Shown one piece after another: positions 3,725 through 52,168 of a DNA stretch of 64,000 bases. The notes beneath the pieces are model-generated. The model made no database searches, was not told the origin of the DNA, and saw only the letters and a list, made by a program, of their open reading frames with translations. How positions within the stretch are numbered: the stretch's first letter is position 1; every line of letters begins with the position of its first letter. The DNA comes from an uncultured Nitrososphaerota archaeon (GTDB taxonomy: Archaea; Thermoproteota; Methanomethylicia; Nezhaarchaeales; WYZ-LMO8): the NCBI GenBank assembly GCA_964586135.1, contig CAZPGS010000001.1:18761-82760 (forward strand), in the 5' to 3' direction. The position numbers and the translations under genes are program-made.

Positions 3725-6142
3725 TTGGGTGAGAGCATGGAGGAGAAGGCAAAGACGTATGTACTATGGTTCGATGAGATAGACAAGGACGACCTAGCGC
3801 TCGTTGGTGGCAAGAGCGCTAATTTAGGAGAGATGACGAAGGCAGGGATATCAGTGCCACCTGGCTTTGCTGTAACTTCGTACGCATACAAAGAGTTCAT
3901 AGAGAGGACGGGCCTTAAGAGCAAGATAAGCGAGGCGTTGAAGGAGGTCGCGAACAGCAAGGATCCCAAGGCATTTGAAGACGTGAGCACGAAAATTAGG
4001 AGAATCATAGAGGAAGAGGAAATCCCAGAAGACATAGCGAGAGCCATCGTTGAAAACTACAGAAAGCTTTGTGAGAGAGTAGGAAGGGCGAACGCCCCCG
4101 TCGCCGTTAGAAGCTCTGCCACAGCCGAAGACTTGCCCGGGGCCAGCTTCGCTGGTCAGCAAGAAACTTTTCTGAATGTCGAGGGCGAGGAAGAGGTCTT
4201 GCTCAAAGTCAAAAAGTGCTGGTCGTCGCTCTTCACGCCACGGGCCATATTCTATCGCCAGGAGAAGGAGATAGACCACGATAAGGTGCTCATGAGCGTA
4301 GTCGTGCAGAAAATGGTCAACGCAAAGGCAGCAGGCGTGATGTTCACCATCCACCCAGTTACGGGAGAGGAGGACAAGATAGTGATAGAGGGAGGCTGGG
4401 GCCTAGGAGAGGCAGTCGTCAGCGGCTCCATAACTCCGGACACTTACGTCGTCGACAAAAGGACCCTCAAGATATTGGAGAAGAAAATAGCTGTGAAAAC
4501 TTACGAAGTCGTCAGAGACCCCTCTTCAGGACGGACCATAAAGGTCGAGGTTCCTCCCGAGAGGAGGAGTGCGCCCTGCCTGACCGATGAAGAAGTCGTA
4601 AAGCTGGCAGAGTTGGCCCTCAAGATAGAGCAACACTACAAGCACCCCCAAGACATTGAGTGGGCCATAGATAGGGACATGAAGTTCCCTGAGAACATAT
4701 TCATAGTTCAGTCTAGGCCCGAGACCGTGTGGTCATTGAGGAAGGAGGGGACAAGAGTGCGGCCCAGCGTCGAAGTCAGAGAAAGGAAGGTCGTAGCTAA
4801 GGGTCTGCCAGCTAGCCCAGGCGTGTGGACTGGCAAAGCCAAGGTGGCCAAGGGCCTCGAAGAGGCCTCGAAAATGATAAAGAAGGGCGACATACTGGTA
4901 ACCACAATGACCAACCCCGACTGGGTCCCGTACATGAGGCTTGCAGGTGCCATAGTGACCGATGAAGGCGGCATGACGTGCCATGCTGCTATAGTTAGCA
5001 GGGAGCTAGGGATCCCAGCTATAGTCGGTACGGGCAACGCAACCAAGGTCATGAAGAGCGAAGAGGAGTACACAGTTGACGCTACAACTGGCGTGGTCTA
5101 CGAGGGCATCGTTGGAGAACTGACAAAGAGGGAGGTCGAGGAAGTCACTAAGCAACAAATGATGCCAGTTACGGAACACTTCATACCCACGGGGACTAAG
5201 ATCTACATGAATTTAGGGGTTCCTGAGAAGATAGCAGAGTACGTCAACTTACCATTTGACGGGATAGGGTTGATGCGCATCGAGTTCATATTGTCGTCCT
5301 ACATAGGAGAACACCCGCTCTACTTACTGGAGATAGGTGAAGAGGATAAGTTCGTGGACAAACTTGCTGAGGGCATAGCGATGGTGGCTAGGCAGGTTCA
5401 GCCAAGGCCGGTCGTCGTCAGGCTTAGCGACCTCAAGTCGAACGAGTACAGAAAGCTGAAGGGCGGCGAGAAATATGAGCCCGAGGAACGCAATCCGATG
5501 CTCGGCTATCGTGGGGTCTCTCGCTACATAAGCCCGCAGTACGAGAAGGCGTTCAGGTTGGAGTGTAAGGCAATCAAGAAGGTCAGGGATGAGTGGGGCC
5601 TCAAGAACGTGTGGGTGATGCTACCATTCGTGAGAACTACTTGGGAAGCGGAGAGGGTCTTGCAGATCATGAAGGAGGAGGGGCTTGAGAGGGGAAGGGA
5701 CTTCAAATTATGGGCGATGGCAGAGGTCCCAAGCGTTATATTCATGGCCGACGAGTTCTGCAAGTACGTTGATGGCTTTAGCATAGGCAGTAACGATTTG
5801 ACTCAACTGGTACTCGGCGTTGACCGCGACTCGGAAATCATGTCGAAGCTAGACGCACGCTACTTCGACGAAAGAGAGCCAGCAGTGTTGAGAGCCATAG
5901 CTCACTTAATTAGGGTCGCGCACAAGCATGGAGTAACCGTAAGCATATGCGGTCAAGGGCCTTCGTACTTGGAGGACTTCGTGGAGTGGCTAGTGCGCCA
6001 AGGCGTAGATAGCATATCGGTTAACCCTGATGCGGTCGTCAGGGTGCGCCGCCTCGTCGCGCAGATTGAAAGGAGGATCATCCTTGAAAGAATGCTCAAA
6101 GGAGTAAAGAGGAGCACGAGAGGAACTCCTTCGCTCAGGTAA
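3725..6142 (+). CDS. ppsA: Phosphoenolpyruvate synthase (PEP synthase, pyruvate,water dikinase)
   Basis: 805 aa. N-terminal ATP-grasp GGKSANLGEM; phosphohistidine domain GGMTCHAAIVSRELGIPAIVGT; C-terminal PEP-utilising TIM barrel with ...CGQGPS.... Confidence 0.85.
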   Translation: MGESMEEKAKTYVLWFDEIDKDDLALVGGKSANLGEMTKAGISVPPGFAVTSYAYKEFIERTGLKSKISEALKEVANSKDPKAFEDVSTKIRRIIEEEEIPEDIARAIVENYRKLCERVGRANAPVAVRSSATAEDLPGASFAGQQETFLNVEGEEEVLLKVKKCWSSLFTPRAIFYRQEKEIDHDKVLMSVVVQKMVNAKAAGVMFTIHPVTGEEDKIVIEGGWGLGEAVVSGSITPDTYVVDKRTLKILEKKIAVKTYEVVRDPSSGRTIKVEVPPERRSAPCLTDEEVVKLAELALKIEQHYKHPQDIEWAIDRDMKFPENIFIVQSRPETVWSLRKEGTRVRPSVEVRERKVVAKGLPASPGVWTGKAKVAKGLEEASKMIKKGDILVTTMTNPDWVPYMRLAGAIVTDEGGMTCHAAIVSRELGIPAIVGTGNATKVMKSEEEYTVDATTGVVYEGIVGELTKREVEEVTKQQMMPVTEHFIPTGTKIYMNLGVPEKIAEYVNLPFDGIGLMRIEFILSSYIGEHPLYLLEIGEEDKFVDKLAEGIAMVARQVQPRPVVVRLSDLKSNEYRKLKGGEKYEPEERNPMLGYRGVSRYISPQYEKAFRLECKAIKKVRDEWGLKNVWVMLPFVRTTWEAERVLQIMKEEGLERGRDFKLWAMAEVPSVIFMADEFCKYVDGFSIGSNDLTQLVLGVDRDSEIMSKLDARYFDEREPAVLRAIAHLIRVAHKHGVTVSICGQGPSYLEDFVEWLVRQGVDSISVNPDAVVRVRRLVAQIERRIILERMLKGVKRSTRGTPSLR

Positions 6143-24033: not shown

Positions 24034-27000
24034 ATGATGGGCATGGAGATGAAGAGTTACGATCCGTTGAAGGTTGAGCATTGCGTGAGGGCTTTCTGGC
24101 ACGACAACGACGTAATAAACAAGTGCTTCGAGGCACGGAAGGGGAGAGGGCTCTTCAGCTTCTTGGAGGGTCCGCCCACAACAAATGGCTTCATGCACGT
24201 GGGTCATGCAAGAGGTAGGACGCTCAAGGACATAGTCATTAAGTTCAAGCTCATGCAGGGCTTTGACGTGTGGCACCGTGCCGGCTGGGACACCCAAGGC
24301 CTGCCAGTCGAGCTTGAGGTCGAGAAGAACTTGGGCCTGAGGTCAAAGAAGGACATAGAGGTCGTGGGCTACGAAAGGTTCGTGGAGGAGTGCAATAAGC
24401 TCGTGGACTACTACTTAGGCCATTGGAGGAAGGCCTCAGAGCTACTAGGCCTGTGGCTCGACTACGACAGCGCATATCAAACGAGGCGTAAAGAGTACAT
24501 AGAGTTCATATGGTGGGCCCTGAAGCAAACGTATGAAAGAGGGCTACTAGTCGAAGATCTTAAGGTAATAGCATTTTGCCCTCGTTGCGAGACCCCTCTC
24601 TCAGACCAAGAGGTCGCTTTGGGCTATGCGAGCATAGAAGATCCCTCGATCTACGTGAAGATCTCGTTGCTCGATAGGGAGTCCACGTACGTAGTCATTT
24701 GGACCACGACCCCCTGGACCCTGCCAGCTAACGAGGCCGTGTGTTTGCATCCGGACGAGTACTACGTCGAGGTCGAGGTGGGAGGCGAGAGGTGGATTTT
24801 GGCCGAGAAGCTCTTGGAGAAGGTCATGGTAGAGGTGGGGATAAAGGGGTACAAAATACTCAGGAAGTTCCTTGGATCGGAACTTGAGGGTACCAAGTAC
24901 CTACACCCGCTTCTAGACGAAGTGCCCGAGCACAAGGACCACCATGCCTCTCACATAATAACGTGTGATCAAGGAGTTAGCATGGAGGAAGGTAGTGGAT
25001 GTGTGCACATAGCCCCAGCTCATGGACCCGAGGACTTCGAAATAGGCAAGAGGTATTCGTTACCTGTGTTCTGCCCGGTGGAGGTCAACGGATTCTATTC
25101 GGACAAAGCTGGCAAATACAGGGGCATGTACGTAAGGGAGGCCAACAGGGTCATCATTGAAGACTTGAGGAAGAAGGGGCTGTTGGCCTACGAGGAGACG
25201 ATACTTCACGAGTACCCTCGTTGCTGGAGGTGCGACACCCCCTTAATCTACAGAGCCGACAGGCAGTGGTTCTTGCGCATAGAGCCCATAAAGAGCTTGA
25301 TCTTGGAGGAGAACGAGAAGGTGAGGTGGGCCCCGCCGTGGGCAGGTAAGGCTAGGTTCCACGACTGGATCGTCAACGCTAGGGATTGGTGCATTTCGCG
25401 CTTAAGGGTGTGGGGCTCGCCCTTGAACATCTGGACGTGCACAAAGTGCGGGCACAGGGTCTGCGTGGGCTCAATTGAAGAGCTCAAGAGCTTGGCCTTA
25501 ACCCGCCTCGAGGACGTGGAGCTTCATAGGCCGTGGATCGACGCCGTCAGGCTCAGATGCCCGAATTGCAGGGGCGAGATGAGGAGAGAGCCGCATGTGC
25601 TTGATTGCTGGCTAGACTCTGGAGTAGCGCACGCTGCAAGCATTGACTACCTGGAAGACAAAGCGCTGTTTGAGAAGTTGTTTCCCTACGACTTCATAAC
25701 CGAGGCGGTTGACCAGACAAGAGGGTGGTTCTTCTCGCTGATCTTCACGAGCGTGATGTTGTTCGGTAAAGCTCCTTACAAGAGCGTGTTATGTCAAGGC
25801 CACGTGCTCGATAAACTAGGCCAGAAGATGTCGAAGAGCAGAGGAAATGTCATTTGGGCTCGCGACGTCATAGAAGCCGAAGGAGCTGATCCCTTGCGCT
25901 TGTACTTAGTCATGAAAGCGGCTCCTTGGGAATCGTTGAACTTCGACATCGAAGAGTTGAAGTCGGTCAAACGCACCTTGAATATAATCTTCAACGTATT
26001 CAAATTTGCCAATACATACATGGATCTCGATAAATTTGATTACAAAAAATACCCAATAGATTTGTTTATCAACAAGCTTTATCCAGAAGACCAGTGGATC
26101 CTCTCGAAGATTCAGACCACCATCGAAGAAGTGACCTCAAACATCGAGACGTATAACATACACGAAGCGGCGAAGGCCATAGTCAACTTCTTTGTCGAGG
26201 ACCTGAGCCATGGCTACATAAGGTTCATTAGGAGGAGGGTTTGGCTAGAAGAGGAGAACGTCGAGAAGCTCATGACTTATAGCGTATTGTACTATGTGCT
26301 CGATAAGGCTCTCAGACTCATGGCCCCCTTCGTCCCACACTTAGCTGAATGGTTGTACCAGGCGTTCTTGAAGAAGTTCGGCGGCTTAAAGGAAGAAAGC
26401 TTGTTCATGCTTAATTGGCCCTCGACCGAGGCCAAGTTCATCAAGAAAGAGCTTGAAGAAGGCGCATCGCTACTCATGGAGGCGCTAACGCTTGTGGCAA
26501 GCGCGAGGCAGAAAGCCAAGCTCAAGGGTAGATGGCCAGTCTCCGACGTCGTCGTTGTGGTATTCGATGAGGGACAGGCCGCGAAGCTAGGCGCGTTTCA
26601 TAAAGCGCTACGCGAGCAAGCCAACGCCCGAAACGTCGTTATCACAACTGCCATACCCAATAACATGAGGTTAAAGGTAATGGTTCAGGAAGGTAAGGTC
26701 AAGAGGGCTCTGAGGCCTAAGATGGCAAAGCTCCTCGAACAGCTGGATAAGGCCGATGTCAAGAAGATGGTAAAAGAACTTTGTGTTCACGGTAAGGTAA
26801 ATGTTAACGTAGAAGTCGAGGAGATATCGCTGAACAACGAGGACGTAAAAGTGATCGGAGTCGAGGACTATGAGAGTTGGGCTTTCACCTTGGGCAAACG
26901 CATGTTAGTATGCATGAACACGACGCGAGACAGAGAGCTTGAGGCCGAGGCCTTAACTAGGGAGCTCGTCCGTAGAATACAGTACATGCGCAAGGAGCTT

Positions 27001-27237
27001 AACTTAAACATCGAAGATTACATAGATCTAGCAATCGAGGCGGACGAGGGCGTTCTAAACATCTTGAGCACAAAGAACGTAGATTACTTGAAGAGTGAAG
27101 TCAGGGCTAGGGAGTTAAAGATGGGTAGTAAAGTGGACGTGACCGGAGAAGGCTGGTACGCAAAGGAGTGGGACGTAGATGGACTGGGGGTCAAAATACA
27201 CTTACGAAAGAGTGGAGAAGGAAGACAAAGTTTTTAG
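24034..27237 (+). CDS. ileS: Isoleucyl-tRNA synthetase
   Basis: Class I HIGH motif (PPTTNGFMHVGHARG), KMSKS (GQKMSKSRGNV), CP1 editing insertion, zinc knuckles (CPRCE..., CTKCGH..., CPNCRG). 1067 aa fits archaeal IleRS. Confidence 0.85.
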   Translation: MMGMEMKSYDPLKVEHCVRAFWHDNDVINKCFEARKGRGLFSFLEGPPTTNGFMHVGHARGRTLKDIVIKFKLMQGFDVWHRAGWDTQGLPVELEVEKNLGLRSKKDIEVVGYERFVEECNKLVDYYLGHWRKASELLGLWLDYDSAYQTRRKEYIEFIWWALKQTYERGLLVEDLKVIAFCPRCETPLSDQEVALGYASIEDPSIYVKISLLDRESTYVVIWTTTPWTLPANEAVCLHPDEYYVEVEVGGERWILAEKLLEKVMVEVGIKGYKILRKFLGSELEGTKYLHPLLDEVPEHKDHHASHIITCDQGVSMEEGSGCVHIAPAHGPEDFEIGKRYSLPVFCPVEVNGFYSDKAGKYRGMYVREANRVIIEDLRKKGLLAYEETILHEYPRCWRCDTPLIYRADRQWFLRIEPIKSLILEENEKVRWAPPWAGKARFHDWIVNARDWCISRLRVWGSPLNIWTCTKCGHRVCVGSIEELKSLALTRLEDVELHRPWIDAVRLRCPNCRGEMRREPHVLDCWLDSGVAHAASIDYLEDKALFEKLFPYDFITEAVDQTRGWFFSLIFTSVMLFGKAPYKSVLCQGHVLDKLGQKMSKSRGNVIWARDVIEAEGADPLRLYLVMKAAPWESLNFDIEELKSVKRTLNIIFNVFKFANTYMDLDKFDYKKYPIDLFINKLYPEDQWILSKIQTTIEEVTSNIETYNIHEAAKAIVNFFVEDLSHGYIRFIRRRVWLEEENVEKLMTYSVLYYVLDKALRLMAPFVPHLAEWLYQAFLKKFGGLKEESLFMLNWPSTEAKFIKKELEEGASLLMEALTLVASARQKAKLKGRWPVSDVVVVVFDEGQAAKLGAFHKALREQANARNVVITTAIPNNMRLKVMVQEGKVKRALRPKMAKLLEQLDKADVKKMVKELCVHGKVNVNVEVEEISLNNEDVKVIGVEDYESWAFTLGKRMLVCMNTTRDRELEAEALTRELVRRIQYMRKELNLNIEDYIDLAIEADEGVLNILSTKNVDYLKSEVRARELKMGSKVDVTGEGWYAKEWDVDGLGVKIHLRKSGEGRQSF

Positions 27238-27263: not shown

Positions 27264-27348
27264 GCCGGGATGGCCGAGCGGACCAAGGCGCCAGCCTTGA
27301 GAGCTGGTGCCCCATTGGGGCGCGCGGGTTCGAATCCCGCTCCCGGCG
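27264..27348 (+). tRNA. tRNA-Ser (anticodon UGA), type II with long variable arm
   Basis: Acceptor GCCGGGA/TCCCGGC. D arm GCC-GAGCGGACCAA-GGC. Anticodon stem CCAGC/GCTGG with loop CTTGAGA (UGA). Variable arm TGCCCCATTGGGGCGC. T arm GCGGG-TTCGAAT-CCCGC. Discriminator G. No intron, CCA not encoded. Coordinates are ±1 nt. Confidence 0.8.
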
Positions 27349-29618: not shown

Positions 29619-30632
29619 TTGGGGAGAAGCGTTCATCAGCCTCGTCGCGGATCTCTGGGCTTCTACCCACGGGTGAGAGCTAAGAGTGTCGTCGCTAGGA
29701 TAAGAAATTGGCCTCAGGTCGAAGTCGAGAAACCGCAATTGCTGGGCTTCGCCGCGTACAAGGCGGGCATGACTCACGGTGTCGTAATCGAGGACAGACC
29801 AACGAGCCCGTTTTACGGTAGAGAGGTTGTGAAGGCGATCACCATACTCGATGCCCCGCCCCTCTTCGTGTGCGGAATAAGGCTCTACTCTTCAACTCCC
29901 TATGGGCTTAGGAGCGTTTTCGAGGTCTTAGCAGACAACCTCCCGAAAGACTTGGAGAGGAAAACGTCGCTCTCCAAGAACTACAACAAAGAAGAGAAGA
30001 TAGCGAGGGCCCAACAGTTATTGAACGAGGTCGCAGAGGTCAGGGTCCTCGCGTGTACTCAACCAAGATTATCTGGACTGAAGAAGAAGACCCCCGAAAT
30101 TATGGAGATAAAGGTCGCAGCCAAGAACGTCGAAGAAGCTTGGGATTACGCGCTATCGATACTTGGGAAAGAGGTAAGGGCCCCAGATATATTTAAGGAA
30201 GGACAATACGTCGATGTCATCAGCATAACCAAGGGCAAGGGCTTTCAAGGCGTGGTGAAGAGATACGGAGTGAAAATTATGCCCCGATGGCACAAGCACC
30301 GCAAAGGCCATCGAAGAACCGGTACGGCGAGCCCCCAGAAGCCCGACATGATGTATAGCATACCAAGGCCTGGACAGCTGGGATTCCACCAGCGAACCGA
30401 GTACAACAAGCGCATAATAAAAATGGGAGAAGATGGATTAAGTGTGACGGTCAAGGGGGGTTTTGTCGGCTACGGCATTGTTAGAGGGCCTTACATAGTG
30501 TTATTGGGCTCGGTACCAGGGCCTAGAGGTAGGCTCGTGAGGTTGAGGTTCCCTATAAGGCCTCTGAAGGACGCGCCCACGAGCCCTCCTAAAATAGTGA
30601 GCATAAACATAGACTCTAAACAGGGTGGTTAG
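29619..30632 (+). CDS. rpl3: 50S ribosomal protein L3 (uL3)
   Basis: ...GFAAYKAGMTHGVVIEDRP...FKEGQYVDVISITKGKGFQGVVKRYGVK... is the canonical L3. 337 aa. Confidence 0.95.
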   Translation: MGRSVHQPRRGSLGFYPRVRAKSVVARIRNWPQVEVEKPQLLGFAAYKAGMTHGVVIEDRPTSPFYGREVVKAITILDAPPLFVCGIRLYSSTPYGLRSVFEVLADNLPKDLERKTSLSKNYNKEEKIARAQQLLNEVAEVRVLACTQPRLSGLKKKTPEIMEIKVAAKNVEEAWDYALSILGKEVRAPDIFKEGQYVDVISITKGKGFQGVVKRYGVKIMPRWHKHRKGHRRTGTASPQKPDMMYSIPRPGQLGFHQRTEYNKRIIKMGEDGLSVTVKGGFVGYGIVRGPYIVLLGSVPGPRGRLVRLRFPIRPLKDAPTSPPKIVSINIDSKQGG

Positions 30633-30634
30633 CG

Positions 30635-31435
30635 GTGCAAGGACCAGTCAAGGTAGCTACGGTTTATGACCTCGAAGGAAGAGAGGCAGGGAAAATAGAG
30701 CTACCGGAGGTCTTCGGCTATGAGGTCAGGGAGGACGTGATAAAGCGGGCTTACTTGGCGGCGCTCACGGCAAGGATACAGCCTCAAGGCAGGGACCCCA
30801 TGGCTGGTAAGAGGACTTCGGCTGAAAGTTGGGGGGTGGGCTATGGCATTGCTAGGGTCCCCAGGGTCAAGGGAGGGAGGTACCCACGCGCAGCGAGCGC
30901 TGCCTTCGTGACGATGGCCGTCGGAGGGAGGAGGGCCCATGCACCAACAGTCGAGAAGAAAATACGCGAAAGGATAAACAAGAAAGAAAAGCGACTCGCC
31001 ATCAAATCCGCGATAGCCGCGACTGCCATCAGGGAGCTCGTGGAAAAGAGAGGCCATATACTTCCACCAGAAATCTCCTTGCCGATAGTGGTGAAGGCAG
31101 AGATAGAGGGGATGGAGACTGTCAAGCAGGCCAAAGAGTTCTTGGCGAAGATGGGGCTATGGAGCGATGTAGAGAGAGTGCGCAAAAGGACCAAGATAAG
31201 AGCGGGCAAGGGGAAGATGAGAGGGAGGAGGTATAAGGAGGGCAAGAGCTTGCTCGTGGTTTTCTCCGGAAAGTGCGAGGCCGTGAAGGCCTTTAGGAAC
31301 CTCCCAGGGGTCACCGTTGCCTACGTCAAAAATCTATCGGTCCTGCACTTAGCCCCGGGAGGAGTTCCGGGACGCTTGACCTTATGGAGTGAGGGCGCCA
31401 TAGAGGCATTAGCTGAAATGGTGTGTGAAAAGTGA
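30635..31435 (+). CDS. rpl4: 50S ribosomal protein L4 (uL4, L1e)
   Basis: ...[47 protein letters not shown]... is the L4/L1e signature. 266 aa. Confidence 0.95.
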
Positions 31436-31722
31436 GTAGCGAAAAAGTCAGTGAAAAAACCTTGAAGTACTATGACGTTGTCCTGAGGCCTGTGGTCTCA
31501 GAGAAAGCTCTATCGTTGATTGAGAAGAGCAACACCTTGACCTTCATCGTCGACTTAAGGGCTAACAAGCTCCGCATAAAAGAGGCCGTCGAAAAGCTCT
31601 TTGACGTCAAGGTCGAAAAGGTCAACACCTCTATAGTCCCGAAAGGGGAGAAGAAGGCCTTCGTGAAATTAAAGCCTGAGCACAAGGCTTCAGACGTAGC
31701 AGTTAAGCTGGGCATCTTGTAG
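31432..31722 (+). CDS. rpl23: 50S ribosomal protein L23 (uL23)
   Basis: ...[53 protein letters not shown]... 96 aa. Confidence 0.9.
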
Positions 31723-31723
31723 G

Positions 31724-32452
31724 GTGGTCGTTATGGGCAAGCGCATATTAGCTCAACGCAAAGGCCGTGGAGGCTCCGTCTTCAGATCCCCAAGGTGGTT
31801 ACACAAAGGCCCTGCCAAGTATCCTAACTTAAGTAAGAGGGAGTGTGAGGGCCTGATTGAGGGGAGGGTAGAGGCGATAATTCATGATCCAGGCAGAGGG
31901 GCGCCGTTGGCGTTAATTAGTCTGCCACACGAAGTGAAGTTCTTCAACGTCGCTGCCGAGGGGATCAAGGTAGGACAGAGGGTACAAATAGGGGACAAGG
32001 CCGAGATAGCTCCGGGCAACATACTGCCCCTGAGGAGCATACCTGATGGGACCAAGGTCTTCAACGTGGAGCTCTCCTACGGCGATGGCGGACGCTTAGT
32101 CAGGGGCTCGGGGTGCTATGCCATCGTATTAAGCCATTCGACCGAGGGCGTGTACATTAGCTTGCCCTCAGGGGAGACAAAGCTCGTCAACGGCTTAGCA
32201 AGAGCAACCATAGGAGCCGTAGCCGGCGCCGGGAGGACAGAGAAGCCCTTCGTGAAGGCTGGCGCTAAATACCACTTGTCAAAAGTTAAGGCGTGGAAGT
32301 ACCCCGAGGTCCGTGGCAAAGCGATGGGCGCTTATGCGCATCCTCACGGCGGAGGAGCCCATCCAAAGGGTAGCTCGCCCGTGAGCCACGGAACGCCTCC
32401 GGGAGCGAAGGTTGGACACATATCTAGCAAGAGGACCGGTAAAAGAGAGTGA
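31724..32452 (+). CDS. rpl2: 50S ribosomal protein L2 (uL2)
   Basis: GKRILAQRKGRGGSVFRSP... GDGGRLVRGSGCYAIV... AMGAYAHPHGGG is canonical L2. 242 aa. Confidence 0.95.
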   Translation: MVVMGKRILAQRKGRGGSVFRSPRWLHKGPAKYPNLSKRECEGLIEGRVEAIIHDPGRGAPLALISLPHEVKFFNVAAEGIKVGQRVQIGDKAEIAPGNILPLRSIPDGTKVFNVELSYGDGGRLVRGSGCYAIVLSHSTEGVYISLPSGETKLVNGLARATIGAVAGAGRTEKPFVKAGAKYHLSKVKAWKYPEVRGKAMGAYAHPHGGGAHPKGSSPVSHGTPPGAKVGHISSKRTGKRE

Positions 32453-32529
32453 AATGAACTAGGTCTCTTAATCGCCGACTTCGGGCCCTTTGTGCCTTAA
32501 GGCTAGGCCTTATCTCCCTTACGACGTTC

Positions 32530-32922
32530 CTACTTCAGGGGCACGTACATCGAGCTTCGCGTCGCTCTCAGCCCAGGCTCGCCATGCTCCACCTTCTTGC
32601 ACGTAGGAGCGAACTCTCCTAGGTAATGTCCTATCATCTCTTCAGTTATCGTGACAGGAACGAACTCTTTACCATTATAGACATGGATGGTCGTATCAAC
32701 CATTTCAGGCAATATTATCATGTCCCTGATGTGCGTTCTAACCGTAGATCTCTTGCCGCTTTTAAGCTCTCTCATTTTCTCGAGGAGCTTCCTCTTCTCC
32801 TCGTTCAGGCCCCTTAAAAGAGATCTCCTTTGCCTCGCTGGGAGTAACTTTATGAACTCGTCCATGGGCATCTCTAGCAACCGCTCTAAGGTATAGCCCC
32901 TATACGTAAACTTGCTCGACAT
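32530..32922 (-). CDS. rps19: 30S ribosomal protein S19 (uS19, eukaryotic S15 family), on the opposite strand to the rest of the cluster
   Basis: [36 protein letters not shown]...[68 protein letters not shown] is unmistakably S19p/S15e but is encoded on the minus strand. Confidence 0.9.
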
Positions 32923-32989
32923 AGACCTCTCGCTTCTTTTTGAGCTACTCCAGTTATAAGAATTACTTTTTAAAGCGGAAACCTAATAG

Positions 32990-33505
32990 GTGAGAGTCCT
33001 CTTTTTCCCAGCGCTAACAGTATTGAAGAGAGAAGGTAGCTCTATGCCGGAATTTGGCTACTCTCTTCAAGTCTACGAGCCTGAGAAAATGGCCATAGCC
33101 AGTGGAAGAGACTTGAGGATAAGTTGGAAGAAGGCGGTGGAGGTTTGCCGGTTCATAAAGGGTAGAAAGCTCGACGAAGCCAAGAAGCTACTAGAGGGGG
33201 TTTTAAAGAGGGAGGTCATGATTCCCTTTACCACTTTCAACAGAAAGCGCGCACATCATGGTAATATAAACAAGCATCCAAGCGGTGGCTATCCCATAAG
33301 AGTTGTGAAAGAAGTATTGAAGATATTGAGGAATGTGGAGTCCAATGCTGAGAACAAAGGCCTCGATGTCGAGAGGCTAGTCATAGTGCACGCCGCCGCG
33401 CACAAGGGACCTGTCATCAGGAAGTACATACCGAGGGCGTTCGGCAGGGCCACTCCGTTCTTCCAGCAGTTGGTTCATATAGAGGTAGCGGTCAAAGAGG
33501 TCTAG
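32990..33505 (+). CDS. rpl22: 50S ribosomal protein L22 (uL22)
   Basis: ...ASGRDLRISWKKAVEVCRFIKGRKLDEAKKLLEGVLKREVMIPF...HHGNI...GYPIRVVKEV... The likely true start is the internal MPEFGYS (~33044). Confidence 0.9.
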   Translation: MRVLFFPALTVLKREGSSMPEFGYSLQVYEPEKMAIASGRDLRISWKKAVEVCRFIKGRKLDEAKKLLEGVLKREVMIPFTTFNRKRAHHGNINKHPSGGYPIRVVKEVLKILRNVESNAENKGLDVERLVIVHAAAHKGPVIRKYIPRAFGRATPFFQQLVHIEVAVKEV

Positions 33506-33529: not shown

Positions 33530-34174
33530 ATGCCGGACATAGAGAAAGGCTTCATCACTAAAGCGTTAAAAAGGCTTGACGTAGACTCCTTTCTAAAACG
33601 CGAGCTGGAGAGGGCTGGCTACGTTAAAGTGGACTTACAGAAGACGCCTCTCGGCACTAACGTGACCATTTATGCAGAAAAGCCGGGAATGGTCATAGGA
33701 AAACATGGCTCTACAGTCCATGAATTAACGCAGAAGTTAGAGAAGACTTTCGGGATCGAGAGGCCCCAAATCGCGGTAGCACCAATTGAAGTCCCAGAGC
33801 TTAACGCTAGGATAATGGCTCAAAGAATCAAGAACGCTCTCGAAAGGGGCATACACTTTCGAAGGGCTGCCTACATAGCTTTAAACCAAATAATGGAGGC
33901 CGGTGCTCTCGGCGCTGAGATAAGGATCAAAGGCAAGCTCAGGACTGAACGAGCTAGGTATGAGAAGCTTCGGTCAGGGATAGTCTTAAAAGCTGGCCAG
34001 TTATCGCAAGAGCACGTGGACGTAGCCGTCGAGCACGCACTCTTAAAGCAGGGCAAAATAGGCATAAAGGTCGAGATATTCTTGCCTTCGGCGGTTAAGG
34101 CCACAGAGGAGTTAGACAAGAGCAAGGTCTTCGTAAAAAGCGAGAGCGAGGGTTGTGGCGATACTCAAGGTTAA
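33530..34174 (+). CDS. rps3: 30S ribosomal protein S3 (uS3)
   Basis: KH domain (...GMVIGKHGSTVHELTQKLEKTFG...) plus the S3 C-terminal domain. 214 aa. Confidence 0.95.
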   Translation: MPDIEKGFITKALKRLDVDSFLKRELERAGYVKVDLQKTPLGTNVTIYAEKPGMVIGKHGSTVHELTQKLEKTFGIERPQIAVAPIEVPELNARIMAQRIKNALERGIHFRRAAYIALNQIMEAGALGAEIRIKGKLRTERARYEKLRSGIVLKAGQLSQEHVDVAVEHALLKQGKIGIKVEIFLPSAVKATEELDKSKVFVKSESEGCGDTQG

Positions 34175-34370
34175 GGATATAGGGAAAATGTCTAAAGAAG
34201 AGAGGCTTGCCAAACTCAGAGAACTAAAAGCAGAGCTCCTGAGGCTTAGGACCCAACAGGCTTCAGGGGCTCCGCTCGAAAACCCCGGCAGAGTGAGGAT
34301 TATAAAAAAGACCATAGCCAGGATCTTGACGGTCATAAATGAAGAGAAGAAGGGTTCTAAACGTGCCTGA
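34155..34370 (+). CDS. rpl29: 50S ribosomal protein L29 (uL29)
   Basis: ...MSKEERLAKLRELKAELLRLRTQQASGAPLENPGRVRIIKKTIARILTV... 71 aa, overlaps the rps3 end. Confidence 0.85.
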   Translation: MAILKVKDIGKMSKEERLAKLRELKAELLRLRTQQASGAPLENPGRVRIIKKTIARILTVINEEKKGSKRA

Positions 34371-35475
34371 ACCTGTCCTTAAGCTTCACCAATATCTTGG
34401 GTAATGTCGTGTACTCTAGTTCTTCAGGTCCGACCCTAGCCGGCATGAACTCTCCCATCCTCCTCATGTAGTCAGCTATCTGCATCGCGATAGTCCTTGC
34501 CACGTCAAAGGCCGGGTCATCGAATAGGTCGGCGGGCTCAGAGCCCGTAAGGCCTATTAACTCGCCGTTTGTCAGCTGGAAGCCAAGAGCTACGACTCGA
34601 GGCGGGCCGTCGAAGAAAGTGCAACGCGCATGCTTCAGACTTACTGGCATCAATGGACCATAGTGCGAGCCCCTCATCCAACCTGCCACGAGGTGGGGGT
34701 ACGCGAAAGGCGCTAGTATTTCACCGACGGCTGGAAAGCCGTGCTGGGCCCTGATTATTAAGGCGGGGTCATCCTTGCCGACGTACTTGCCAGCTATTAA
34801 GCTGAGCCTCGTCGTGGTGGCCACGGCAGCAATCTCTCTATCCACTTTTCTCAGAACCTTCTCGACGACGTACCTCCCCGTCGTGCCCAAGAGCGCCACT
34901 AAGCTGTAAAGCTCTTCAGGGCAACTGAGGTCGACAACCTTTCCCTCTACGACGTCCATGACCCTAAATATGAAGCCTTCGTGCATGCTGGGATCTATTA
35001 CTAAACCAGCGGTGTTATCTGGTGACGCGAAGATCTTGTAAAGGGGGTAGTTCCAAGCTCCGGGCTCAGTCTTATCGGCTGCGAACACTACTATTGGCTC
35101 GCTGAGCCTCTCGGTTATCTCCATCTCGGCAACTCCAGGGCCCATCCCCTTCACATTGCCTGAGAAGGTGTCTGAGAGGAGGTCCTGTCCGGCCGCGTAG
35201 AGCTTTAGAGGTTTTGAAACCTTCTCTGTGACCTCCTTGAATGTGTTCCAAGCTAAGCCATGGATCTCCGGGTCGCCTTCTCCCTTAGTGTGGGTCATCA
35301 ACAATTCCAAGTCGTCGCCACAATTGAAGACGTAGTAGTCCATAATGATTCCATTTTTCTTGGCCTCTTCAAGCCGTTTGCGGGCCACTTCTAGTTGTTT
35401 GGGATGGACGACGTGGTGTCCGCAAAGAGAGCCCACATCGGCTTTTATCAAGCTAATGGTGACTTTTTGCGGCAC
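34357..35475 (-). CDS. fbp: Bifunctional fructose-1,6-bisphosphate aldolase/phosphatase (class V FBPase)
   Basis: MPQKVTISLIKADVGSLCGHHVVHP... N-terminus and overall 372-aa architecture are characteristic of archaeal FBPA/P. Confidence 0.9.
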   Translation of the reverse strand: MPQKVTISLIKADVGSLCGHHVVHPKQLEVARKRLEEAKKNGIIMDYYVFNCGDDLELLMTHTKGEGDPEIHGLAWNTFKEVTEKVSKPLKLYAAGQDLLSDTFSGNVKGMGPGVAEMEITERLSEPIVVFAADKTEPGAWNYPLYKIFASPDNTAGLVIDPSMHEGFIFRVMDVVEGKVVDLSCPEELYSLVALLGTTGRYVVEKVLRKVDREIAAVATTTRLSLIAGKYVGKDDPALIIRAQHGFPAVGEILAPFAYPHLVAGWMRGSHYGPLMPVSLKHARCTFFDGPPRVVALGFQLTNGELIGLTGSEPADLFDDPAFDVARTIAMQIADYMRRMGEFMPARVGPEELEYTTLPKILVKLKDRFRHV

Positions 35476-52094: not shown

Positions 52095-52168
52095 TGGGCC
52101 GGCCCGGACTCGAACCGGGGACCTCCCGCGTGTGAGGCGGGCGTTCTAACCAGCTGAACTACCGGCCC
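52095..52168 (-). tRNA. tRNA-Val (anticodon CAC)
   Basis: Reverse complement GGGCCGGTAGTTCAGCTGGTTAGAACGCCCGCCTCACACGCGGGAGGTCCCCGGTTCGAGTCCGGGCCGGCCCA. Acceptor GGGCCGG/CCGGCCC. Anticodon loop CTCACAC (CAC). T loop TTCGAGT. 74 nt, no intron. Confidence 0.8.

Follow-up and report, generated by a model that had tools for sequence, protein, structure and literature searches.

An ancient, lineage-typical in-place inversion of the uS19 gene within the S10-like ribosomal protein cluster of Nezhaarchaeia

In the present study we observed that the gene of ribosomal protein uS19 of Nezhaarchaeia (hot-spring archaea of the phylum Thermoproteota, also referred to as Methanonezhaarchaeia) lies on the opposite strand within an otherwise co-directional ribosomal protein cluster. 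The inversion is real, ancient and typical of this lineage. Very probably, an old event turned S19 around in its slot between uL2 and uL22, and the gene has been inherited in this orientation ever since, with the cluster divided into three transcription units and with a promoter of L22 that is older than the flip.

The open reading frame list and a Pfam scan of the window (i.e. the whole 64-kb stretch of DNA that was analysed) revealed eight contiguous genes, uL3-uL4-uL23-uL2-uS19-uL22-uS3-uL29, with no other gene interposed; all eight pass the curated Pfam cut-offs (Table 1). Seven of them are located on the plus strand and S19 alone on the minus strand, so the single-strand character of the canonical cluster is lost. 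This arrangement, with S19 in its canonical slot and flanked by spacers of 77 and approximately 120 nt, is the one that had originally been predicted, and the measured spacer lengths (77 and 121 nt) agree with it. Within each of the plus-strand blocks the neighbouring genes overlap or are separated by 1–24 nt. The uL29 gene overlaps S3 by 20 nt, and its other end overlaps the convergent gene of a class V fructose-1,6-bisphosphatase (FBPase) by 14 nt.

Table 1. Genes, spacers and candidate regulatory elements of the inverted-S19 region (positions in the window)
Feature	Coordinates	Strand	Evidence and remarks
uL3 gene	29619..30632	+	first of the L3-L4-L23-L2 unit; PF00297, E = 3.6e-77
uL4 gene	30635..31435	+	2 nt past L3; PF00573, E = 4.1e-39
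uL23 gene	31432..31722	+	4-nt overlap with L4; PF00276, E = 2.3e-20
uL2 gene	31724..32452	+	end of the upstream plus-strand unit; PF03947 + PF00181
L2/S19 spacer	32453..32529	.	convergent (tail-to-tail), 77 nt; GC 0.49
uS19 gene	32530..32922	-	inverted in place, 130 aa; PF00203, E = 2.8e-33
S19/L22 spacer	32923..33043	.	divergent (head-to-head), 121 nt; GC 0.42; two back-to-back promoter candidates
Candidate S19 promoter, AGTTATAAGAATTAC on the plus strand = GTAATTCTTATAACT in S19 sense	32952..32966	-	BRE-like + TATA
Candidate L22 promoter, GCGGAAACCTAATAGG	32975..32990	+	BRE-like GGAAA + TATA-like CCTAATAG
Conserved CTAACAG	33014..33020	+	25 nt past the L22 TATA-like box; likely L22-S3-L29 start region
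Shine-Dalgarno-like GAGAAGGTAG upstream of L22	33030..33039	+	GGAAGG or AAGG conserved
uL22 gene	33044..33505	+	153 aa, heads the L22-S3-L29 unit; PF00237, E = 2.2e-29
uS3 gene	33530..34174	+	PF07650 + PF00189
uL29 gene	34155..34370	+	closes the ribosomal cluster in this lineage; PF00831, E = 2.3e-21
Class V FBPase gene, after L29	34357-35475	-	overlaps the L29 3' end

Some of the gene starts deserve comment. The uL3 protein is 337 or 319 aa long, depending on the gene caller used for other assemblies. Translation of uL2 likely starts at ATG 31733, which yields a protein of 239 aa, as given by gene callers. The start codon of uL22 is ATG 33044, since its homologues begin with MP.(F/W)GYS. The upstream GTG (32990) was rejected as a start, because the stretch that follows it contains between-species indels whose lengths are not divisible by three.

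The window shares with the canonical archaeal S10-like cluster (surveyed in PMC10833476) the same eight genes, their linear order, and the tight or overlapping spacing within L3-L2 and L22-L29. The differences are that S19 lies on the opposite strand between two spacers, and that the cluster stops after L29, whereas the canonical one runs on into Rpp29-uS17-uL14. There is no direct run into the spc-like part (Rpp29/uS17/uL14/uL24) and, in a tblastn search, the genes of Rpp29, S17, L14, L24, S4e and L5 had no match in the whole 64-kb window. The series uS19-uL22...uL15 has been described as a universal 14-gene core on the basis of Asgard and reference archaea (PMC10833476). This core is broken in the window, and the "universal" archaeal uS19-uL22 linkage fails in this part of Thermoproteota.

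Relatives of the locus were identified by a scan of species-representative genomes and metagenomes and mapped with tblastn, by which the window falls among Nezhaarchaeota/Nezhaarchaeales MAGs; further ones were added by look-ups of L2 and L22 homologues. The flip was detected in about eight other lineages of Nezhaarchaeia (L2 identity 77–91%), as well as in a deep relative, L169 (58%). All loci with an S19 identity of at least 89% (L007, the WYZ-LMO8 locus L008, L009, L010, L087 and L088) have the flipped layout. The same layout, with the FBPase gene placed after L29, was found in L167 (L2 77% identical, 1.02-Mb contig) and in L176 (82%). The inversion had been regarded as unusual in the original prediction; the comparison with relatives, all the close ones being flipped, makes it lineage-typical instead. 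Among the loci compared, an in-place flip with both neighbours kept occurs only in Nezhaarchaeia.

The deeper branches of this group are more varied. L169, assigned to 'Nezhaarchaeales' and examined as one of 12 similar places, has the order L2(+) S19(-) L22(+), with spacers of 1148 and 378 nt. In L168, L170 and L173, L2 is followed by proteasome-SBDS-exosome genes. S19(+) and L22(+) are adjacent in L174, where L2 is absent upstream, and lie approximately 3.9 kb apart in L177 and L178, while in L175 S19 is missing from the 4 kb around L22. The matching tree positions suggest that L174/L175/L177 (representing the S19/L22 side) and L168/L170/L173 (representing the L2 side) are parts of the same lineage.

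Phylogenetic relationships were analysed by neighbour-joining (200 bootstraps) using L3+L4+L23+L2 (879 columns) and L22+S3 (332 columns). These are simple distance trees built from few markers, and the branch leading to the core clade is long. The core clade was monophyletic in 200/200 replicates with both data sets, and the broad Nezhaarchaeia group in 171/200 (L3+L4+L23+L2) and 200/200 (L22+S3). L169 grouped with L168 and L170 in 197/200 replicates of the former tree and with L174 and L175 in 200/200 replicates of the latter, and gamma-corrected distances produced the same groupings. Shared derived residues, although few, agree with the trees: there were none for L169 plus the core, and for L169 plus L174/L175 there were three in L22+S3 and none in L3-L2. 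Since L169 groups with lineages in which S19 and L22 are co-directional (L174, L177/L178), the trees imply that the orientation of S19 relative to L22 would have changed at least twice within Nezhaarchaeia. How many such rearrangements took place, and in which order, is read from the trees; a pair of parallel flips and a single flip with a reversal are equally parsimonious. The topology ((core, L169), rest), which would need one flip, was without support in the distance trees.

Both spacers had been described as AT-rich and TATA-bearing. This proved correct for the 121-nt divergent spacer, which is relatively poor in GC and contains both motifs in question, TTATAAG (32954-32960) and TTTTTAAAG (32967-32975), but not for the 77-nt convergent spacer, whose GC content is close to the window mean (0.489) and which contains neither. 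The sequence of the L2/S19 spacer is not conserved between Nezhaarchaeia species, and its length varies from 70 to 111 nt. In the window, this spacer contains no stable fold in comparison with shuffled sequence (z = +0.7 to +1.2), no intrinsic-terminator-like site, and no clear oligo-T terminator for L2 or S19. We infer that the transcripts of both L2 and S19 must end within it. The S19/L22 spacer contains blocks conserved across eight Nezhaarchaeia lineages, and it folds no better than shuffled sequence. A hidden small RNA or a riboswitch-like leader in the spacers was also considered and rejected, given the lack of a better-than-shuffled fold and of any match at E ≤ 1 in an Rfam search of both spacers.

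Archaeal promoters comprise an AT-rich TATA box, located about 25 nt upstream of the transcription start, and a purine-rich BRE just upstream of it. Two candidates of this kind are present in the divergent spacer, and their assignment as promoters, like that of the places where transcription starts and ends, is based on sequence comparison. On the S19 side, 30 nt separate the end of the TATA-like box from the S19 ATG in the window (30–48 nt across species). TTATAA is conserved in seven of the eight core lineages, the remaining one (L167) having the variant TTATATAA. This block is the putative S19 promoter, for which transcription is predicted to start at approximately 32927-32932, with a very short leader. 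The AT-rich TTTTTAAAG, which is absent from L009, could be an alternative TATA box of S19. When the S19-side promoters of the Nezhaarchaeia core, L169 and Culexarchaeia were compared, only generic TATA likeness and similar spacing were found.

On the other side of the spacer, the GCGGAAACCTAATAGG element precedes the L22 ATG by 54 nt; it is conserved in all core lineages and is the probable promoter of L22. A similar TATA-like motif, AAAAGATTAAATAGGGG, is present 58 nt before the start of L3. The heptamer CTAACAG downstream of the L22 element is identical in five aligned Nezhaarchaeia species (the window with L001/L003, L007, L008, L009 and L010), and L087, L167 and L176 deviate from it. It is likely to be the transcription start region of L22-S3-L29, because its spacing fits the usual archaeal distance between the TATA box and the start. 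GGAAGG or AAGG is found 5–10 nt before the L22 ATG across the Nezhaarchaeia species. In the window, this Shine-Dalgarno-like site pairs with codons 5–9 of L22 to form a hairpin (-20.1 kcal/mol, z = -2.6). A scan for sigma-70 promoters and intrinsic terminators, using bacterial-type models that are inapplicable to archaea, showed no enrichment, with 2 sites (2.4 expected) and 3 sites (3.3 expected), respectively.

It had been proposed that the inversion gave both S19 and L22 their own promoters. This view is in agreement with the conserved TATA-like element upstream of S19, but not with the situation of L22, whose motif also occurs in canonical relatives. Methanomethylicales (Verstraetearchaeota; L060, L065, L075, L080, L084, L148) have the same gene order as the window and a homologous L22 motif. 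They differ in that S19 reads in the same direction as L2 and L22; it is placed 38–58 nt after L2 and is separated from L22 by a spacer of 125–133 nt. Their BRE/TATA-like motif (..AAAC TTTTTATAG / GGAAACCTAATAG) was observed 54–60 nt upstream of L22, including GTGAAAAACTTTTTATAG 59 nt upstream of the L22 ATG. In Culexarchaeia, AAGCAAA(A/C)TTTTTATAG is present about 57 nt upstream of L22, and related boxes precede L22 in L174 and L175. Judging from these sequences, the L22 promoter motif predates the S19 flip, since relatives with S19 in the normal orientation carry it at the same distance; the S19/L22 boundary would thus already have had a promoter motif. Probably, this junction was a transcription-unit boundary before the flip, which fits the idea that operon boundaries are cost-free break points in conserved clusters.

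In the scenario that we favour, S19 would probably already have been the last gene of its transcription unit before the flip. The two breakpoints of the inversion would have fallen within existing inter-unit spacers, and only S19 would have been in need of a new promoter afterwards. The inverted gene lies outside both of the flanking plus-strand transcripts and consequently requires a promoter of its own; the idea that a local inversion uncoupled S19 from the polycistronic transcript is therefore upheld. At present, the cluster would be expressed as (i) L3-L4-L23-L2, transcribed from a promoter upstream of L3 and ending in the tail-to-tail spacer, (ii) S19 alone, as a monocistronic unit of the other strand, driven by the TTATAA box 30 nt before the ATG and probably yielding a near-leaderless mRNA, and (iii) L22-S3-L29, transcribed from the BRE/TATA element that lies 54 nt before L22, its leader of about 30 nt containing the Shine-Dalgarno site. 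An essential ribosomal gene would thus be made from its own small promoter and not from a long operon, which constitutes a natural experiment in protein balancing and implies no new mechanism.

The neighbourhood of S19 was also surveyed in 67 species-representative loci with enough flanking sequence. The order of the cluster had been assumed to be among the most conserved gene arrangements, and the survey contradicted this assumption for related genomes: the tight order L2>S19>L22 was found in just 6 of the 67 loci. In the others we observed (i) L2 adjacent to S19, with L22 missing from the fetched flank of up to 5 kb (21 loci), (ii) S19 adjacent to L22, with L2 not nearby (7 loci), (iii) S19 with neither L2 nor L22 nearby (7 loci), (iv) S19 divergent from L22, with L2 not nearby, in the Culexarchaeia clade (8 loci), (v) L2 itself on the opposite strand (3 loci), and (vi) other layouts, including 3 Nezhaarchaeia loci with the in-place flip (15 loci). 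L172 was considered as a candidate for an L22-lacking cluster. This was rejected, because tblastn showed that an antisense ORF had been annotated in place of L22, and the layout of L172 is canonical. Both flanks of S19 are common breakpoints in these Thermoproteota.

Parallels to the window also come from two other lineages. In five Culexarchaeia loci (L038, L048, L057, L071, L124) S19 is oriented head-to-head with L22-S3-L29, as in the window, across a spacer of 150–230 nt that carries a separate TATA-like element on each side. However, L2 does not adjoin S19 in these loci, an MFS transporter gene follows S19, and the cluster continues into Rpp29-S17-L14. In the Culexarchaeia loci L011, L023, L029 and L035, S19 and L22 lie apart, with 2–4 kb of other genes in between. 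According to a published phylogeny, Culexarchaeia are the sister group of Methanomethylicia and not of Nezhaarchaeia (PMC9723716), so a shared origin with the flip of Nezhaarchaeia is not favoured. The three loci with an inverted L2 (L041, L056, L076) are Desulfurococcales MAGs, in which one cluster gene is likewise flipped between its usual neighbours, in this case L23 and S19. They represent a different lineage; the flipped block comprises L2 and a gene of 162 aa, and about 1.1 kb with other ORFs precedes S19. A tentative and rather doubtful extension of these observations is that S19, which is head-to-head with L22 throughout Culexarchaeia as well, is a free-standing, self-transcribed module that has been flipped repeatedly, its flanks forming a recurrent breakpoint hot spot in a cluster that is generally regarded as frozen. 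If this were true, the flip could be used as a rare-genomic-change marker to order the branches of Nezhaarchaeia, Culexarchaeia and Methanomethylicia.

A limited literature search revealed no description of an S19 inversion. The flip is readable in any annotation of Nezhaarchaeia MAGs, and for a cultured representative, Ca. Methanonezhaarchaeum fastidiosum YNP3N, both RNA-seq and a closed genome (Nanopore+Illumina) are available (PMC12700198). The flip is a clean and easily scored character, which appears to mark Methanonezhaarchaeaceae, if not the whole class, and it could help to place fragmentary MAGs and to test the disputed branching of Nezhaarchaeia, Culexarchaeia and Methanomethylicia.

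The layout might have arisen not by a single 0.5-kb flip, but by two nested inversions of larger size, each with one end at a different flank of S19. Prokaryotic genomes commonly undergo large inversions, and both flanks of S19 have been reused as breakpoints in related lineages. In addition, the core clade, including the window, has lost the link between L29 and the Rpp29/S17 part, which is kept in L169, L174 and L175, so that more than one rearrangement must have hit this region. We nevertheless consider this course of events unlikely, since it requires two events with coinciding far breakpoints. Moreover, the genes to the left of the cluster (those of IleRS, tRNA-Ser, archease, a hexapeptide-repeat protein and a methyltransferase, followed by L3) have the same order in the core and in deep relatives, and thus show no trace of a large inversion on this side.

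S19 is present in a single copy in the window and, as originally predicted, is full length and free of frameshifts: it covers the PF00203 profile from position 1 to 81 of 81, with a score of 114 bits against a cut-off of 27. Comparison with seven Nezhaarchaeia lineages gave dN values of 0.03–0.09 and dS values ranging from 0.8 to saturation, and the dN/dS ratio of about 0.02–0.04 relative to other Nezhaarchaeia species reflects strong purifying selection. The inverted S19 is therefore an intact, functional gene. There are known examples of ribosomal protein genes that were replaced horizontally, and in principle the native S19 could have been lost and a foreign one inserted backwards at the same spot. 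The S19 identities among Nezhaarchaeia species (85–94%), however, are in step with those of the flanking genes. The nearest S19 proteins outside the core clade (L171 and L012, 78%, for L012 as a best-segment identity; L174, 77%; L169, 73%) all belong to neighbouring Thermoproteota, which are also the nearest ones for L2, L22 and S3. An exact hit on the canonical slot would, in addition, have to be a coincidence, and we regard such a replacement as very improbable.

Native S19 might still alternate between two orientations within the population, as part of a programmed invertible segment (inverton). The segment is short, S19 is its only gene, and one of its two spacers bears a promoter candidate, all of which would suit such a system. 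However, the best inverted pair that brackets S19 (32438-32447 / 32999-33008) is 10 nt long with 90% complementarity, which is the chance level, and no recombinase or integrase was found among the Pfam families of the neighbouring genes, within about 5–6 kb on each side. More generally, neither inverted nor direct repeats of any significance were detected at the junctions, where no trace of a recombination mechanism is left. A single orientation is present in all same-species assemblies and in all core relatives, and switching off an essential ribosomal gene would probably be lethal. Such switching thus seems even less credible than the acquisition of a foreign gene.

An assembly artefact, i.e. 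a short contig or a repeat-bounded segment placed in the wrong orientation, has a negligible probability: the segment, of approximately 590 nt, is short and comes from metagenomic data, but nothing speaks positively for such an error, there are no flanking repeats to mislead an assembler, and about nine further lineages, some of them on contigs as long as 1.02 Mb and 375 kb, are organized alike. An identical S19 protein in the same L2(+) S19(-) L22(+) layout was found in six independent assemblies (three from JGI, one from ENA and two from Logan), obtained with different pipelines from different samples, which also share the neighbouring genes around S19; misassembly is thereby excluded at the assembly level. 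Finally, in both junction spacers the sequence divergence keeps pace with that of the species.

The ribosomal cluster in the window stops abruptly after L29, its last gene, where it meets a convergent class V fructose-1,6-bisphosphatase gene; the two genes together span 34155-35475 (the feature coordinates are collected in the table below; L followed by three digits denotes a locus of a relative, as distinct from ribosomal proteins such as L2 or L22). No genes for Rpp29, S17, L14, L24, S4e or L5 were found within the 64-kb window. The L29/fructose-1,6-bisphosphatase junction is common to all core Nezha lineages (the close relatives sharing the S19 flip) whose flank at this site was fetched. 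It is missing from L169, the deep Nezhaarchaeales relative with a flipped S19, and from L174 and L175, which group with it; there the cluster continues into Rpp29-S17-L14.

Unusually long non-coding spacers surround S19 and L22 in L169, and these contained neither convincing ORFs nor matches to Rfam. In a deep sublineage of the Nezhaarchaeales (L168, L170 and L173), L3-L4-L23-L2 is followed directly, in place of S19, by the exosome superoperon with the genes for proteasome-alpha, SBDS, Rrp4, Rrp41, Rrp42 and L37ae.

Coordinates of features in the window and in the loci of relatives
Feature	Locus	Position	Strand	Remarks
Class V fructose-1,6-bisphosphatase gene	window	34357-35475	minus	convergent with L29; 14-nt overlap at the L29 3' end
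Hairpin at L22 start	window	within 33014-33075		Shine-Dalgarno region TTGAAGAGAGAAG (33023-33035) paired with L22 codons 5-9 (33058-33070)
tRNA-Ser(TGA) gene	window	27264-27348		flanked by the genes for isoleucyl-tRNA synthetase (24034-27237) and archease
tRNA-Val(CAC) gene	window	52095-52168	minus	
L2 into exosome superoperon	L168	4001-5517		
L2 into exosome superoperon	L170	4001-8723		
L2 into exosome superoperon	L173	1559-6281		
Spacer	L169	4721-5868		1148 nt
Spacer	L169	6268-6644		378 nt
Spacer	L169	7113-7715		about 600 nt
L2 on opposite strand	L041	2551-3891		
L22 absent from gene call	L172	5181-5636		

Throughout a clade to which the named Culexarchaeia MAGs belong, S19 is oriented head-to-head with L22-S3-L29-Rpp29-S17-L14 and shows no linkage to L2 (loci L038, L048, L057, L071 and L124, with S19 at approximately 5001-5405 or 2501-2902, as well as L011, L023, L029 and L035). 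S19 and L22 are adjacent (150-230 nt) in some of these loci, where the gene after S19 encodes an MFS transporter; in the rest, other genes occupy 2-4 kb between them.

The L2 gene between L23 and S19 is reversed in strand in three Desulfurococcales-type MAGs (L041, L056, L076), a further case of a small segment of this cluster inverted in place; the ORFs listed for L041 place a 162-aa gene upstream of L2 that is flipped together with it. S19 and L22 are co-directional and approximately 1 kb apart in a group of Thermoprotei MAGs (B15_G2 type; L012, L017, L089, L171), and in L171 this stretch contains an opposite-strand gene for a UbiA-family prenyltransferase. The corresponding gaps in two Methanomethylicales loci, L028 and L033, measure 2.2 kb and 0.4 kb. 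An apparent loss of L22 in L172, where the public gene call has an opposite-strand 119-aa ORF without a Pfam family instead, was rejected as an annotation artefact, since tblastn recovered a normal plus-strand L22. This artefact could pass for gene loss or inversion.

The Shine-Dalgarno region of L22 in the window is enclosed in a hairpin (-20.1 kcal/mol, z = -2.6), which might damp L22 translation. This structure is poorly conserved among the Nezha lineages compared, being weaker in L008 and L010 and absent from L007 and L176.

Identical sequences received different start-codon calls in the window and in other assemblies of the same species (L001-L005), giving 291 or 264 aa for the methyltransferase (28672), 337 or 319 aa for L3 (29619) and 171 or 153 aa for L22 (32990); among these, the start was resolved for L22 only. 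The window also carries genes for tRNA-Ser(TGA) and tRNA-Val(CAC).
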